Of a DNA stretch of 64,000 nt, positions 3,939 through 24,335 are shown piece by piece; the first letter of the stretch is position 1, and the number at the start of each line of letters is the position of its first letter. Source of the DNA: Leptonemataceae bacterium (GTDB lineage: Bacteria; Spirochaetota; Leptospiria; Leptospirales; Leptonemataceae); contig OZ245742.1 of the NCBI GenBank assembly GCA_965227295.1, forward strand, positions 1,568,001-1,632,000. The letters run 5' to 3'. The position numbers were made by a program, and so were the translations under genes. Under the pieces are notes generated by a model. It had not been told where the DNA came from, ran no database searches, and saw nothing but the letters and a program-made list of their open reading frames with translations.

Positions 3939-6185
3939 ATGAGTACGCCTTCGGTTGTCGAACAAAAGCGAGATCATTACGTGCATCCCGCAGAGCACGT
4001 GTACGATCTGCTGCAAATCCTGGATTTGCGTTTGCAGATTCTACTGGAAGAGCTCCCCGATGATGAGGGCGATGCGTCGCCCAATGCGAGGGAGGTCTCC
4101 GGTTTATTCATTGCGCCGGCGGAAGTGCGGCGGTTGCTCGGACGCTCCTCGTTTCGTGAAGGCTCCGCGGCGAATGTCGCCGCGGCCCGGCAAACGCTCG
4201 AACAAAAGGAGCGCGAGATCGAGGAACGCCTCGTTGCGTCCCGGGAACTCAATTCGCATTCGGCCCTGGAAATCCTTGCGGGCATTTTCGGTCTTTCTAC
4301 GGAGGACTGTGACGTTGTTCTCACGTGTCTTGCGTACGTCCTCGACGCCCGCTACGAGAAAGTATTTGCTTTCATTAATAATGATTTAACGAAACCTTAT
4401 CCGACACCCTTGCTTGTTGCGACGATCTTCGGCTACGATGGGCAGCGTCGCGATCGCCTGCGTTCTTGTTTGCGTCCCGATGCGCCCCTCCTGCGCCGCA
4501 TGTTGTTGCGCGCGGATCGTAACGGCGCGTACGGCGAAGGCTCACCTTTCGGCCAACGATTGATGCTCGATGAGCGTGTTGCGGATTTCTTGCTCGGCAC
4601 GGCGCGCGTGGACGGTCGTGCGGCGGAGTATCTTACGTTTGCAAACGGTTCTGCCGCGGATTCGCCGGCCCCGCAGCAGTTGCAACGCGAACTGGATTTC
4701 CTCGCGGATTCTTTGCGCGAGTCCGAAAAGGCGGCGGAATCCGTGCGCCTGTGTTCGTTCTTCGGTGCGCCCGGTTCCGGACGGAGCCGCGCGGCGGCCG
4801 CGGTCTGTGAGGCCGTCGGCCTGCCGGCGTTGCAACTGAACATTCGTCGTCTGGTCGCTTCGGGGGAGGACGTTCGTGAAGCCTTGCGCCGTTCTTTCCG
4901 GGACGCATTGTTACTGCAGGCCGGTTTGATTATTCGCGAACCCGAGTTGTTGCGCTCAACGTTCGTCGAAGATCGTTATCTGTTCGAATTCCTGGAAGCC
5001 GAACTGGCCGTGACGCCGGGACTCTTTTTTATCTGCAGCGCCGGGCGTCTTGAGTGGAATCTTCCCGAGCACGTCGTCATCCGCGAAATCGAATTCGGTG
5101 TGCCGGATTTTGCCACGCGGCGCATGATCTGGGAGCAGCAGTTGAACGGCCGGACCGCAAAGGCGGCCGGCGCCCCGGAAGTGTTCGCGTCGCGCTTTCG
5201 TTTGACCGGCGGTCGCATCCGCCGGGCGATTCGAACGGCCGAAGCCTTCGCGCCTTCCGGAGAAAGCGATGTCTCGCAGCTCTCCGGGCTGGATCTTGCT
5301 TTTGAATCTGCGCTCTTTGAAGAATGTCGCAGCGGCAATAGCTTAAAGCTGGCCGAACTGGCGGTACGTCTGCGACCGAAGTTCGGTTGGGAAGACATTG
5401 TACTTCCGGCGGAACAGCGGAACGAGTTGCGGGATATCTGTACTCACGTTCGTTTTCGCGATCAGGTCTACGACAGCTGGGGGTTTGATGAAACTCTCGC
5501 CGCCGGGTCGGGTCTGAACGTGCTATTCTCCGGGCCGCCGGGGACCGGCAAGTCCATGGCCGCCGGCGTCATTGCGAAGGACCTCGGCCTCGAAATCTAT
5601 CGCATCGATCTTTCTTCGATGGTGAGCAAGTACGTCGGCGAGACGGAAAAGAATCTCTCGCGGATTTTCGATGAGGCGGCGAACTCCCAGGCCATTCTCT
5701 TCTTTGATGAAGCGGATGCGTTGTTCGGAAAACGCAGCGAGGTCAAGGACGCGCATGATCGTTACGCGAACATCGAGACCGGTTACCTTCTGCAAAAGAT
5801 GGAGGAGTTCGACGGCGTAACCATTCTCGCTTCGAACCTTTCGGAGAACCTGGACGACGCCTTTCTGCGGCGATTGCATTTTGTCGTGGACTTTCCCATG
5901 CCGGACGCGGCGGAGCGCGAACATATCTGGAAGCTGGCCTTTCCGGAGAACGCGCCCTTCCTCGAAGAGCCGGACTACGCCGATCTGTCCCGGCGTCTTA
6001 AGATCTCCGGGGCAAACATTAAGAATATTGCTCTGCACGCCGCGTTTTTCGCGGCCTCGGAGGGCCGCGGCATTCTCATGCGCGACGTAATTCAGGCCGC
6101 GCGCCGGGAGTATCGCAAAGAAGGCCGCCCGTTTTCCGGCGCCGAGGCCGGCAACTATCTCAGCCAGGAGGCTGCATCCAGATGA
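3939..6185 (+). CDS. eCIS AAA+ ATPase (Afp15/Pvc15-like); alternative start at 3912
   Basis: Degenerate first AAA module (GAPGSGRS), intact second module (GPPGTGKS; ILFFDEAD), plus SKYVGETEKNL and KDAHDRYAN. Confidence 0.93.
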   Translation: MSTPSVVEQKRDHYVHPAEHVYDLLQILDLRLQILLEELPDDEGDASPNAREVSGLFIAPAEVRRLLGRSSFREGSAANVAAARQTLEQKEREIEERLVASRELNSHSALEILAGIFGLSTEDCDVVLTCLAYVLDARYEKVFAFINNDLTKPYPTPLLVATIFGYDGQRRDRLRSCLRPDAPLLRRMLLRADRNGAYGEGSPFGQRLMLDERVADFLLGTARVDGRAAEYLTFANGSAADSPAPQQLQRELDFLADSLRESEKAAESVRLCSFFGAPGSGRSRAAAAVCEAVGLPALQLNIRRLVASGEDVREALRRSFRDALLLQAGLIIREPELLRSTFVEDRYLFEFLEAELAVTPGLFFICSAGRLEWNLPEHVVIREIEFGVPDFATRRMIWEQQLNGRTAKAAGAPEVFASRFRLTGGRIRRAIRTAEAFAPSGESDVSQLSGLDLAFESALFEECRSGNSLKLAELAVRLRPKFGWEDIVLPAEQRNELRDICTHVRFRDQVYDSWGFDETLAAGSGLNVLFSGPPGTGKSMAAGVIAKDLGLEIYRIDLSSMVSKYVGETEKNLSRIFDEAANSQAILFFDEADALFGKRSEVKDAHDRYANIETGYLLQKMEEFDGVTILASNLSENLDDAFLRRLHFVVDFPMPDAAEREHIWKLAFPENAPFLEEPDYADLSRRLKISGANIKNIALHAAFFAASEGRGILMRDVIQAARREYRKEGRPFSGAEAGNYLSQEAASR

Positions 6186-6757
6186 CTCTTACCCCCACGT
6201 ATACCGTGATCCGGGACGTCAGCGAGACGTTGCGCAAGCTTGTGCAGGGCAACGTCTCCGAACTTTCGGACATTACCCGGATCGTTTTCGATTCGCCGGC
6301 GGAGATTACCGCCGCGGCCACGCCGAAGCTGTCGCTCTTTCTGTACAAGGTGCGCTACAACAAATATTTGCGCACGAGCCCGCCGGTGCGTACGGGCCAC
6401 GATTCGCAACAGGCCGCTCCGCTGCAGTTGGATCTGATGTATCTCTTCTCTGCACATTCCACGAACATTGAAACGGAAATGATCATTATCGAGAAGATCC
6501 TCGCGTTGTTCTACGACAACCCGGTGCTGCGGGAGCCGGATCTGGAAGGTCAGCTTACGGATAACGGCAACGACGCGCTGCGCATCGTGCCCGATGATCT
6601 TTCCGTGGACGAGATTGAAAAGCTGTGGACCGCGTTTCCGAACAAGGCGTATCGCCTGGCTATTCCGTTTATCGTATCGCCCGTTTGTATTCCCTCCGGG
6701 CGCACCAGCACGGTCAAACCGGTCATCGAGCGGCAGCTCGGCATCGCGCAGACGTAA
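6182..6757 (+). CDS. DUF4255 / Afp16-Pvc16-like sheath cap/terminator
   Basis: Motifs IRDVSETLRKL, LSLFLY, PLQLDLMYLFS, FYDNPVL and LSVDEIEKLW. ATGA overlap with the ATPase gene. Confidence 0.88.
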   Translation: MTLTPTYTVIRDVSETLRKLVQGNVSELSDITRIVFDSPAEITAAATPKLSLFLYKVRYNKYLRTSPPVRTGHDSQQAAPLQLDLMYLFSAHSTNIETEMIIIEKILALFYDNPVLREPDLEGQLTDNGNDALRIVPDDLSVDEIEKLWTAFPNKAYRLAIPFIVSPVCIPSGRTSTVKPVIERQLGIAQT

Positions 6758-6774
6758 TTACGAGGAGCATTTGG

Positions 6775-22911: not shown

Positions 22912-22952
22912 AGAATAAAAAACTAACGGCATATACTTAAGGAGCAATCATC

Positions 22953-24335
22953 ATGGCAAAACCCGTTAAACGATTACGCTATTTCGACGGACTCTTTCTC
23001 CGTGAAGAGGAGTTCAACGACGAACAGGAACACTACACCCGTCTGCGGCGGTTGCATAACCGCTACCTGCACAGCAACGGGATCGTCTACGGCCTGGAGG
23101 TCGAACCGGGCGGCAGCGCGGATTCCGTATCGGTAACGAAGGGTATGGCCCTGGATCGCTACGAAGACGGTGACATCGGGGACAGTCTGAGCCGGGAGAT
23201 CATCTTACGAGATGCCGAAGAAGTCAGCCTGCAACAGTACGATCCTTCCGACGAGGTGTGGCTGTGGATCGCGTACGGCGAGTCCCAGGCCGACGCCGAT
23301 GCCGGCGGCAATCCGACGCGCTACGAGGAGATCCCGCAAATCATACACGGCACGACCATGCCCACCGGCGACGCGAACATCATCCTCGCGCGCATTGTCA
23401 TGCCCGCCGGCTCGATTACGGAATCGGACATTTTCGATACCGACGGCTCGTCGAATCCCATCCGTAAACTGGCGGGTTTCCAGGGTGGCAGTGTCAGTAC
23501 CGATACCCTCATTCTCACGGACGATGATTTCGGGACGGATCCGCCGACTCTGGACGGCTTCTACTGGAGCGGTACGGATGATCGCGGCGTGAAATTCAAT
23601 TCGGACCGCACCCAGTTTTCCGGCGACGTGGAAATCGACGAAACACTCACCGTCACGCAGGATGCGACGTTTTCCGCGAACGTCAGCGCCGGCGGTACGA
23701 TGAGCGTTACCGGAAACACCACGCTCAGTGGCAATGCAGGCATCGGCGGTACACTCACAATTCAAGGCTCCGTATCCGTGGACGAGGTCTCCGACGATGA
23801 TACCATGGCCGATGCCAGTGCTACCGCGGTTCCCACGGAACGTGCGGTACGGGAATACGTCGAGTCTCTGCTGGTCGGTTCGATCACCGCGTTTGCCATG
23901 CAGGAGGCCGATCTTCCGGACGGCTGGGTGGTTTGCGACGGCCGAGAAATCAGCCGCACGACTTACGCGCGACTGTTCGGGAAGATCAGCACAAATTACG
24001 GGACCGGAGACGGATCCACGACGTTTAACGTGCCGGACCTACAGGGTGAGTTCATTCGCGGTCTTGATGCAACGGCGGGCAACGACCCGGACTCGCCGCG
24101 CGCGGTGGGTTCCAGTCAGGCTGATGCGTTTCAGGGGCACTGGCACGATCATCCTCACGAGATGTTCTGGAATGACGGTAGCCCGAACAACGTGGCATCG
24201 AGCAATCAGATTACGATGAACAATGAGATCAACGCGGTTAGAGATCCTTCCAGCGACGGCGTCAACGGTACCCCGCGCACATCATCCGAAACCCGCCCCC
24301 GCAACGTGGCAATGCTGTACTGCATCAAAACGTAA
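22953..24335 (+). CDS. eCIS tail fibre 2 (paralogue of fibre 1) with tail-collar domain
   Basis: KRLRYFDG...EEEF..EQ; PDGWVVCDG...SRTTYARLF...FNVPDLQGEFIRG; FQGHWHDH; ETRPRNVAMLYCIKT. Confidence 0.88.
   Translation: MAKPVKRLRYFDGLFLREEEFNDEQEHYTRLRRLHNRYLHSNGIVYGLEVEPGGSADSVSVTKGMALDRYEDGDIGDSLSREIILRDAEEVSLQQYDPSDEVWLWIAYGESQADADAGGNPTRYEEIPQIIHGTTMPTGDANIILARIVMPAGSITESDIFDTDGSSNPIRKLAGFQGGSVSTDTLILTDDDFGTDPPTLDGFYWSGTDDRGVKFNSDRTQFSGDVEIDETLTVTQDATFSANVSAGGTMSVTGNTTLSGNAGIGGTLTIQGSVSVDEVSDDDTMADASATAVPTERAVREYVESLLVGSITAFAMQEADLPDGWVVCDGREISRTTYARLFGKISTNYGTGDGSTTFNVPDLQGEFIRGLDATAGNDPDSPRAVGSSQADAFQGHWHDHPHEMFWNDGSPNNVASSNQITMNNEINAVRDPSSDGVNGTPRTSSETRPRNVAMLYCIKT

Follow-up and report, generated by a model that had tools for sequence, protein, structure and literature searches.

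The DNA analysed here (the window) is a 64-kb stretch, positions 1568001-1632000, of the single-contig genome of a Leptospirales spirochaete, a genome of 5,938,550 bases with an estimated completeness of 93.55% and contamination of 3.46%. Positions 3912-24335 of the window (+ strand) hold an uninterrupted, closely packed run of 20 genes, about 20.4 kb long, which is a contractile injection system (CIS) of the superfamily that includes the antifeeding prophage (Afp) and the Photorhabdus virulence cassettes (PVC). The contractile-tail core is complete: sheath, gp19-type tube, gp25, baseplate J, VgrG-like spike and PAAR were all recognised by Pfam and NCBIfam, and Pfam also identified both an Afp15-like AAA+ ATPase and an Afp16/Pvc16 (DUF4255) cap. 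All 20 frames are intact and tightly coupled, with junctions of -86 to +91 nt and a purine-rich, Shine-Dalgarno-like run 5' of most genes, and no hydrophobic segment was found in any of the 20 proteins. About 640 nt of non-coding DNA precede the ATPase gene, and scans for promoters and terminators upstream (3200-4000) and downstream (24200-26500) gave no excess over shuffled expectation. There is no compositional break at the cluster, with a G+C content of 0.57-0.59 compared to 0.55-0.66 over the whole window. A preliminary description, made from the sequence alone, had named most of these parts, and each named component was recovered at its place on the + strand. That parts list was correct as far as it went, but it passed over three cluster genes, namely those for an immunoglobulin (Ig)-like protein (6775-7896), a chaperone-like protein (10062-10445) and a DUF6760 protein (10388-10648).

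The run opens with the 757-aa Afp15/Cis15-like ATPase (3912-6185; WHD PF22977, E 3.8e-37; AAA, E 4.9e-32), whose winged-helix N-domain is of the type seen in Afp15/Pvc15-type proteins. The gene had been described as starting at 3939, which is the second in-frame ATG of a frame that opens at 3912 and is kept here as an alternative start. The Afp16-like tail terminator, or cap, follows at 6182-6757 (Pvc16_N, DUF4255, PF14065, E 3.2e-37), with weak Protein Data Bank (PDB) matches to Anabaena All3327 and to Afp16; its family is present in 0 of 14 control genomes. The sole sheath gene of the cluster (7988-9499) encodes a 503-aa protein with Phage_sheath_1 and Phage_sheath_1C domains, and is followed by inner tube protein 1 (9531-9974; gp19 family, PF06841, E 1.1e-39). 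Next come the 127-aa tail-assembly-chaperone-like protein (10062-10445; PHROG 508 'tail assembly chaperone', E 6e-9; C-terminal CxxC zinc-ribbon-like motif), which gives additional weak matches to Gp41_Mu and Phage_TAC_7, and the DUF6760 frame (10388-10648; PF20546, E 6e-18), which lies in -1 relative to the chaperone gene and is conserved from near 10448. A second gp19 protein of 173 aa (10688-11209; PF06841, E 4.9e-41) is probably an Afp5-like tube initiator. In the tape-measure position beyond it lies a hydrophilic protein of 354 aa (11237-12301) that received no assignment from Pfam, NCBIfam, PHROGs or a PDB sequence search, and matched only unnamed clusters of the ESM Atlas, with low recognition. 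Its conservation is limited to the first ~105 aa and to the congeners of the host.

The central spike and baseplate are encoded next. An Afp7-like baseplate hub or tube adaptor (12283-13026, likely start 12298; CIS_tube PF19266, E 1.1e-23) bears a LysM-type match at residues 179-218. The VgrG-like spike is split in two, with a gpD/gp27-like hub forming the N-terminal half (12941-14137, likely start 13046; NCBIfam VgrG_rel, E 6.9e-34; YQBQ, E 1.4e-7) and a gpV/gp5-like OB-fold spike forming the C-terminal half (14134-14805; Phage_base_V, E 5.6e-27). A PAAR spike tip (14817-15212; PAAR_motif, E 2.4e-13) and a gp25-like sheath initiator or baseplate wedge (15231-15623; GPW_gp25, E 2.6e-28) precede two counterparts of Afp11. 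The first of these is a large baseplate J of 1333 aa (15627-19628; Baseplate_J, E 4.6e-12, residues 934-1109) that matches PDB 9gtp_1K (E 2.8e-57, residues 875-1154) and whose first ~870 residues matched no family; the second is a small J-like protein of 310 aa (19654-20586; TIGR02243, E 3e-42; PHROG 6 baseplate wedge, E 4e-9). The run closes with a P2 gpI/Cis12-like baseplate protein (20595-21371; Tail_P2_I, E 4e-7; CIS12_fam, E 8e-22; TIGR02242, E 5e-20) and two Collar-domain tail fibres, fibre 1 of 500 aa (21409-22911; E 1.1e-21) and fibre 2 of 460 aa (22953-24335; E 5.6e-20). The N-terminal ~180 aa of fibre 1 are common to fibre 2 and to the fibres of relatives.

The Ig-like protein between cap and sheath (6775-7896) has 373 aa folded into four Ig-like β-sandwich domains (CarboxypepD_reg, E 9e-16; AlphaFold model all β, mean pLDDT 89.6). 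Foldseek returned only multi-Ig pilins and adhesins, with TM-scores of at most 0.23, and matched no CIS component; the protein is possibly a decoration of the particle. Its counterparts are ~367 aa in Leptospirales (for example L005:8841-9941) and ~188 aa in loci of Methanoperedens, SAR324, Nitrospirota and others (for example L028:9049-9612), so that the Leptospirales form looks as though it had been lengthened by added domains.

A widespread type of injection system

Relatives of the sheath run into the thousands (7828 of 8000 scored candidates at E <= 0.001), with a best non-self identity of 59-60%; one relative with 55% identity, from a metagenome-assembled genome of Leptonema illini, carries the NCBI name 'phage tail sheath family protein'. 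We compared 80 related loci from species-representative genomes, many of which are cut off by the end of a contig or by the limit of the 10-kb flank, so that the counts are lower bounds on presence, and gpI and the fibres fall outside this flank. The loci share the order ATPase, cap, (Ig protein), sheath, tube, chaperone, tube, variable gene, Afp7, gpD, gpV, PAAR, gp25 and J, and this order spans Bacillota (Paenibacillus, Ruminiclostridium), the archaeal Methanoperedens, Nitrospirota, Accumulibacter, Acidobacteriota and others. Matches were found to the sheath in 80 loci, to each of the two tube proteins in 78, to the chaperone in 74 (at 55-73% identity), to the cap in 71 and to the ATPase in 70. 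Counts for the later genes were 62 for Afp7, 60 for gpD, 58 for gpV, 53 each for gp25 and the large J, 52 for PAAR and 49 for the small J, while the Ig protein was seen at the same position in 20.

Gene content places the cluster within the known subdivision of such systems. In the scheme presented by Chen et al. (2019, PMC6899500), afp8 is split in the IIa, IIb and IIc subtypes and afp11 is present in two copies in IIa and IIc; the same source describes PAAR as absent only from IIb, and afp12 and afp13 as retained in IIa and IIb and mostly gone from IIc and IId. The cluster has a split afp8 (12941-14137 and 14134-14805) and two afp11 copies (15627-19628 and 19654-20586), a combination common to IIa and IIc, together with counterparts of afp10, afp12 and afp13 in its PAAR, P2_I/CIS12 and two Collar fibre genes. 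The single contiguous afp8 and single afp11 of IId are absent, both being doubled here. On gene content the cluster thus fits lineage II, subtype IIa of the dbeCIS database.

Among solved sheaths, the nearest are 8bky (E 1e-101) and 8bl4 (E 2e-98), followed by 9ezm (E 9e-91), with the sheaths of Anabaena All3325, Pvc2/3 and Afp2/3 far behind (E 1e-36 to 1e-46). Zachs et al. (2024, PMC11566945) identify 8bky as Cis2 of Streptomyces coelicolor, whose CIS (subtype IId; Casu et al. 2023, PMC10066040) also provides the nearest solved baseplate J (9gtp, E 2.8e-57); the N- and C-terminal domains of the sheath both align throughout. The likeness does not extend to the parts list. Subtype IId as described in PMC6899500 has one contiguous VgrG, one J gene and mostly no afp12 or afp13, in contrast to the split VgrG, two J genes, gpI and two fibres seen here. 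The 'Streptomyces style' proposed in the preliminary description is therefore apt for the sheath sequence, which is far nearer to Streptomyces than to PVC or Afp, but not for the architecture, since a split VgrG with two J genes belongs to IIa or IIc and IId has one of each in the published scheme. The companion suggestion of a cyanobacterial style did not hold: the Anabaena sheath (7b5h, E 2e-44) is as distant as that of PVC, and the thylakoid-anchored system is placed in a lineage-I clade in the accounts of PMC10066040 and PMC12998442.

A closer parallel in gene content is the CIS of Halogeometricum borinquense, the 'archaeal T6SS' (type VI secretion system) of clade IIa. Zachs et al. (2024, PMC11566945) describe a lineage-II system that has two cis11 genes with Cis12 and Cis13, like the cluster here, and that similarly has no recognised plug or tape-measure homologue. 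Its cluster is broken by an 8.7-kb spacer with DUF4157 genes in that account, whereas ours is contiguous with no DUF4157 gene in cis; the two are likened by description, not by sequence. The archaeal Methanoperedens loci share the gene order of the window. No characterised CIS among the solved structures compared matches the cluster closely.

The systems of subtype Ia, Afp of Serratia and PVC of Photorhabdus, have the same core parts list, including Afp7, a gpI-like protein, a fibre, the Afp15 ATPase and the Afp16 cap. They differ in having three sheath paralogues where the cluster has one, and in having payload genes after the cluster where none is present here, and their sheaths are only distantly similar (E 1e-39 to 1e-43). 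Their ATPase and cap are encoded at the 3' end, as opposed to the 5' end here.

A candidate frameshift signal in the tail chaperone gene

Phage tail assembly chaperones can be made in two forms by a programmed -1 frameshift, as in G/GT of phage lambda and E/E+E' of phage P2. The junction between the chaperone-like gene and the DUF6760 frame has the same general layout. A candidate -1 frameshift signal at 10433-10483 (+ strand) comprises a G GGG GAG run (10433-10439), an 8-nt spacer and a 12-pair hairpin (10448-10483). DUF6760 was matched by tblastn in ~74 loci (E 1e-18 to 1e-30), and in every one of the 73 related loci where both were detected its frame is -1 relative to the chaperone gene. 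The junction could be evaluated in 58 loci, the window counted, after 16 were dropped because frame-tracing stopped short of the conserved G-Y/F-P motif. In all 58, a GGGGGA run occurs no more than 15 nt before the chaperone stop, and in 42 the DUF6760 frame contains no ATG, GTG or TTG between its opening and the conserved motif.

The hairpin was assessed in an alignment of 56 distinct sequences, where its 12 pairs begin 5-8 nt 3' of the run. Standard pairs fill 96.7% of the pair cells, compared to 33-62% when the partners are slid by 1-3 columns, and four pairs show compensatory double changes (11 cells, a count reached by 0 of 500 shuffles). One of these double changes, C-G to U-A, is common to six Leptospirales rows and is probably a single event. 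RNAalifold independently predicts the same helix, and the element of the window has a minimum free energy of -26.2 kcal/mol (z -2.2). Several synonymous third positions in the hairpin arms are nearly fixed across phyla, with an A as the third base of a Val/Ile codon in 55 of 56 rows, a pattern that protein constraint alone would be hard put to explain. These hairpin numbers are supportive rather than proof, as the shuffles ignore relatedness and the helix was read off the same sequences. The third CIS locus of the same genome, described below, has the same arrangement of chaperone, run, hairpin and DUF6760 (genome 2804840-2805019).

The slippery run, G GGG GAA/G, departs from the canonical X XXY YYZ heptamer: the P-site codon would re-pair perfectly, and the A-site codon would need a G.U pair at its middle position. 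The DUF6760 product may come either from a frameshift or from a separate start, such as the in-frame GTG at 10388 in the window. A separate start coupled to the chaperone stop as ATGA or GTGA was considered and fails for most loci, in that what overlaps the stop is a GTA codon in the window and an ATA codon in 49 of the 58 loci. Taken together, the frame relationship, the run and the paired hairpin suggest, with good though not full confidence, that the junction is a programmed -1 frameshift, and we would predict a chaperone-DUF6760 fusion product.

The parallel with lambda and P2 covers the place of the chaperone-family gene between the tube gene and the presumed length determinant, and the build of the signal, in which a -1 extension at the 3' end of the chaperone goes with a stretch of identical bases, then a spacer and then a hairpin. 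Unlike those cases, the system here is a CIS rather than a phage, the run is non-canonical, a tube-family gene lies between the chaperone and the presumed tape measure, and the extension, which is a Pfam family, is annotated as a protein in its own right. Our full-text literature search found no paper naming DUF6760 and none evident on a frameshift in a CIS tail chaperone, so that this recoding signal has apparently not been described before.

Host, inheritance and the other injection loci of the genome

The host genome groups with named Leptospirales genomes, with two in the same genus (G001 and G002, the congeners) and others in the same family (f1; G019 and G008). Four matches to FlaA (PF04620), the sheath protein of the spirochaete periplasmic flagellum, were found in the genome compared to 0 in the 14 controls. 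The host is thus well supported as a Leptospirales spirochaete; that it was a spirochaete had been proposed from the genes flanking the cluster. The narrower label 'Leptospiraceae-like' holds for the order but apparently not for the family of Leptospira: by inference, that family is the sister family f2, and none of its 114 genomes carries the cap gene. For this host, 'Leptospiraceae' is valid only in NCBI's broad sense. At ~59% G+C, the genome is also far from the composition of Leptospira.

In both congeners the cluster occupies the same chromosomal site, with the pyridoxamine-phosphate oxidase gene pdxH and a MORN-repeat lipoprotein gene upstream and a metallo-β-lactamase (MBL)-fold hydrolase gene and argD downstream. 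The cluster is therefore not a chimera of the assembly, a concern raised for its borders in the preliminary description. Its structural proteins are 44-87% identical over their full length between congeners (tube 86-87%, sheath 59%, large J 53%, ATPase 44%), and the flanking housekeeping proteins are 58-83% identical. In G002 (L097/L098, G002:C9:135000-174999), the whole cluster lies at this site without the ATPase gene, and ~950 nt separate the MORN and cap genes.

A quick maximum-likelihood tree of 83 sheaths (80 loci, the window and the two other sheaths of the genome) places the window sheath in a clade of eight rows with a support of 100 in the Shimodaira-Hasegawa-like approximate likelihood ratio test (SH-aLRT). 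Six of these rows are labelled Spirochaetota, and the others are the window and G002; every labelled row is from Leptospirales, and the neighbouring clades are Bacillota, Methanoperedens and Thermodesulfobacteriota. The Pvc16_N cap family was found in 8 of 156 Leptospirales genomes, the source genome counted, comprising 7 of the 41 others of f1 and 0 of the 114 of f2, and in none of 400 additional Spirochaetota genomes sampled evenly across ~60 other families. Among the genomes searched, the system is restricted to one Leptospirales family, and chiefly to its larger genomes. These data are best explained by a chromosomal CIS cluster that is vertically inherited within this Leptospirales lineage.

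Two further CIS loci, overlooked in the preliminary description, lie elsewhere in the genome. The second, of another type (L091; genome 5708682-5726961, - strand), encodes a 490-aa sheath, a T4_baseplate-family protein, a 419-aa Pvc16_N protein, an AAA+/WHD ATPase, an eCIS_core protein, a CIS_tube protein and a 1316-aa baseplate J with an inserted WD40 β-propeller; look-alikes of its sheath occur elsewhere in G001 and G002. The third (L093/L094; genome 2793954-2818434, + strand) carries an AAA+/WHD ATPase, a Pvc16_N cap, a 564-aa sheath, tube, chaperone with DUF6760, CIS_tube, a gpD-like hub, a 378-aa spike, a 1131-aa baseplate J and eCIS_core proteins of 632, 613 and 336 aa. It lies ~3 kb upstream of the sole 16S rRNA gene found (genome 2821770-2823276).

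The eCIS_core domain, DUF4157, is a core domain of extracellular CIS (eCIS) loci and is tied to toxins in the survey of Geller et al. (2021). Pfam scans found neither this domain nor any toxin family in the window, and the cluster has no operon-associated payload or DUF4157 gene. Elsewhere in the genome there are 17 matches, also missed earlier, in frames of up to 1272 aa, two of them interrupted by a stop. Five are grouped at 2.466-2.473 Mb (2465893-2473494), several are at the third CIS locus, and the rest are single, for example at genome positions 2543855, 2567785, 4787975, 4938142 and 4977645. These 17 proteins may serve the three CIS loci as cargo. In Halogeometricum, the proteins reported to be secreted in a CIS-dependent manner include DUF4157 proteins whose genes lie away from the cluster (Zachs et al. 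2024, PMC11566945), so that its cargo is DUF4157-marked and partly encoded elsewhere, as could apply to the 17 genes here, none of which is in the window. Because the window has no DUF4157 or toxin gene, 17 DUF4157 genes lie elsewhere and Halogeometricum offers a precedent, the most likely and most economical reading is that cargo would be supplied in trans by some of these proteins.

Genes of phages and of other contractile systems were also looked for. Integrase, transposase, capsid and terminase families gave no match among the ~50 window open reading frames (ORFs) scanned, and no tRNA gene was found in the 64-kb window. Genome-wide, there were 0 matches each to TerL_ATPase, Terminase_6N, HK97 Phage_capsid, VipB/TssC and IcmF-related/TssM, in searches that left out portal, non-HK97 capsid and TssJ/L families; the same five families gave matches in 3, 5, 4, 1 and 1 of the 14 named control genomes, respectively. 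This bears out the earlier statement that head, packaging, integrase and T6SS membrane-complex genes are lacking, as judged from capsid, terminase, TssC and TssM across the genome and from integrase among the window ORFs. A matching capsid or terminase elsewhere in the genome had been named beforehand as grounds for giving up the assignment, and none was found.

Immediately downstream of the cluster, 33 nt 3' of fibre 2 and on the same strand, lies a gene for a 645-aa membrane protein with 12 hydrophobic segments that resembles GT-C/PMT_2 glycosyltransferases (24369-26306). Its nearest ESM Atlas clusters have PMT_2 in 42-44% of their members (score 0.99); it has no Pfam match and no detectable homologue at the same site in G001 or G002. 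G002 has a different PMT_2 gene there on the same strand (L098:11658-12941), with 26% identity over 149 aa to the window protein (E 0.12-0.19). The membrane protein is probably not part of the injection system, and it and the G002 gene may be either old neighbours or unrecognised accessories. A role as effector is ruled out by the 12 hydrophobic segments and the GT-C-like clusters, and as an anchor the protein is at most a weak candidate, given that the congeners do not keep it there.

Otherwise the window holds ordinary chromosomal genes, including pdxH, the MORN lipoprotein, the MBL-fold hydrolase, argD, hemerythrin, monomeric isocitrate dehydrogenase, a SpoIIE/HAMP phosphatase, a multihaem cytochrome, flotillin, an FtsX/MacB-type permease, galactokinase and a penicillin-binding protein. 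An upstream ORF at 2632-3468 (+ strand) was rejected as spurious; the opposite strand (2659-3270, - strand) encodes the MORN-repeat lipoprotein kept in the congeners. For argD (27496-29430, - strand), the open frame has 644 aa, yet the aminotransferase match covers residues 247-643 only and the congener alignments begin at residues 234-239, so the listed GTG start is probably too far upstream. Further along, and unrelated to the CIS, a gene for a protein with an NAD-glycohydrolase-translocation F5/8 type C domain (40108-41472, + strand) adjoins the multihaem cytochrome gene (41358-42614, + strand), which encodes MtrC/MtrF-like domains.

Mode of action and meaning

The gene set suggests the following sequence of events, in which each functional step is a proposal. 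A baseplate comprising gp25, the large and small J proteins, gpI and the Afp7-like hub would form around the split, gp27-like and gp5-like spike, capped by PAAR. Tube and sheath would then polymerise on the baseplate, helped by the tail-assembly chaperone, which would probably be made in two forms through a -1 frameshift into DUF6760, and the adjacent 354-aa protein would set the length. The Pvc16-type cap would terminate the tube, with the AAA+ ATPase aiding either assembly or the loading of cargo. On binding of a target by the two Collar-domain fibres, the sheath would contract and drive in the spike together with cargo, which would come from outside the cluster and likeliest from among the 17 DUF4157 proteins. 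The particle would most likely act after release from the cell, which is to say that the mode would be extracellular.

The locus varies at its fibre end: the window carries two fibres without partner genes, G002 two fibres with a single partner gene, and G001 three fibre-like genes with partner genes, the third fibre-like gene being different at its N-terminus. Such variation among congeners is the pattern expected of receptor-binding proteins, and we favour a released particle over an anchored or cytoplasmic one because the module varies as expected of receptor-binding proteins that face changing targets. The lack of hydrophobic segments in the cluster proteins and the fact that the sole adjacent membrane protein is not conserved at the site also support an extracellular mode. 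We place the probability of a released particle at roughly 0.6. As a separate observation, the congeners have a conserved 214-261-aa protein of no known family after each fibre gene (L096:8116-16661, L098:7918-11587), possibly a fibre assembly factor.

Several points weigh against the proposal as a whole. The preliminary description called the system an eCIS; the gene set is indeed that of an Afp/PVC-superfamily CIS, but 'extracellular' was an assumption, as the lineage-II systems characterised in the sources cited here are cytoplasmic or membrane-bound. The systems of Streptomyces, Roseiflexus and Deinococcota are reported as cytoplasmic (PMC10066040, PMC12998442, PMC11566945), and the clade-IIa system of Halogeometricum as membrane-bound, with Cis12 and Cis13 suggested to aid anchoring (PMC11566945); therefore the fibres do not prove release. 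The mode of a CIS is in any case described as not reliably predictable from sequence (PMC12998442). No lysis cassette, effector or regulator was recognised within or beside the cluster, the ATPase missing from the G002 locus may be dispensable or encoded elsewhere, and the length-setting role of the 354-aa protein is read from its position. The subtype, too, is drawn from gene content rather than from placement in a tree with labelled references, and the cluster is known from its genes.

Some of these points lend themselves to other explanations. The system could be a cell-bound, T6SS-like weapon, its baseplate anchored to the cytoplasmic membrane and firing outwards on contact, as in H. borinquense. 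The gene content fits the clade of the sole characterised IIa system, which is described as membrane-bound and contact-dependent (PMC6899500, PMC11566945) and which also retains Cis12 and Cis13 and draws DUF4157 cargo from genes elsewhere (PMC11566945), and a multi-pass membrane protein is encoded 33 nt downstream on the same strand. Yet Halogeometricum is a single-membrane archaeon with a conserved anchor gene of six transmembrane segments in that account, whereas the host here is a diderm with flagella in its periplasm, and no envelope-spanning complex is encoded, nor does the cluster have a conserved membrane-protein partner at its site. The adjacent membrane protein is glycosyltransferase-like and absent from the congener loci, and the cluster proteins all lack hydrophobic segments, so we regard anchoring as unlikely. 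A cytoplasmic CIS that fires inside its producer and brings about regulated death or lysis in times of stress, like the systems of Streptomyces and Roseiflexus, seems improbable to a similar degree. The nearest solved sheath and baseplate J (8bky/8bl4 and 9gtp) come from Streptomyces, whose system is located in the cytoplasm and brings about cell death (Casu et al. 2023, PMC10066040), and neither an effector nor a lysis gene lies in cis. The systems known to act in this way are, however, of subtype IId as described (PMC6899500, PMC10066040, PMC12998442), with a single VgrG, a single J and mostly no afp12 or afp13, as opposed to the split VgrG, two J genes, gpI and two diversifying fibres seen here.

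It is also conceivable, though we consider it quite improbable, that the cluster makes no particles, being a decaying or silent relic, or that its genes are those of an R-type tailocin or form the tail module left by a defective prophage. The evidence for the system is genetic, and one congener, G002, is without the ATPase gene at the locus. Against decay, the 20 frames are intact and tightly coupled, and the structural proteins are conserved between congeners at full length to much the same extent as the housekeeping flanks. The Afp15-type ATPase and Pvc16 cap are markers of CIS rather than genes of phages or tailocins, and neither a terminase nor an HK97-type capsid was found in the genome, nor an integrase among the window ORFs scanned. 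Overall, a released, fibre-bearing particle is the mode we favour.

Regarding what was known before, the statement that no spirochaete CIS has been characterised agrees with our full-text literature search, which found none. The terms Spirochaet* and Leptospir* are absent from the main texts of Chen 2019, Geller 2021, a 2025 metagenome survey and a 2025 preprint on fibres; supplementary tables may list such loci. Spirochaete CIS are thus better called 'not characterised and not discussed' than 'never seen'. As an eCIS, the cluster is what one would expect of a widely transferred system that has now turned up in a further phylum, and not a new kind of system. What raises it above one more eCIS locus is its restriction to one family, the three loci with a large DUF4157 repertoire, and the apparently undescribed recoding signal. 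We give about even odds to the full joint reading, in which one free-living Leptospirales family would be the only sampled spirochaete lineage with an acquired CIS, holding an arsenal of three loci and 17 DUF4157 genes, and in which an undescribed frameshift would make a two-form chaperone in at least 10 bacterial and archaeal phyla.

CIS attract study both as agents of microbial warfare and as programmable tools with which to deliver proteins. Functional work, as represented in the sources cited, has dealt almost entirely with lineage I, and few lineage-II systems have been characterised. A compact and complete lineage-II cluster in a diderm spirochaete would offer a useful comparison for how particles exit, or are anchored, past a periplasm that holds the flagella, and the three loci with 17 candidate cargo genes form a system for asking how cargo is matched to machine. 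If the joint reading is true, DUF6760 would have a function, corresponding to that of the T/E' extension in phages, and the frameshift fusion would identify part of the tail-length machinery that surveys have reported missing from lineage-II systems. The conserved frameshift signal, if real, would provide a testable assembly step for this whole type of CIS and a role for a domain of unknown function.

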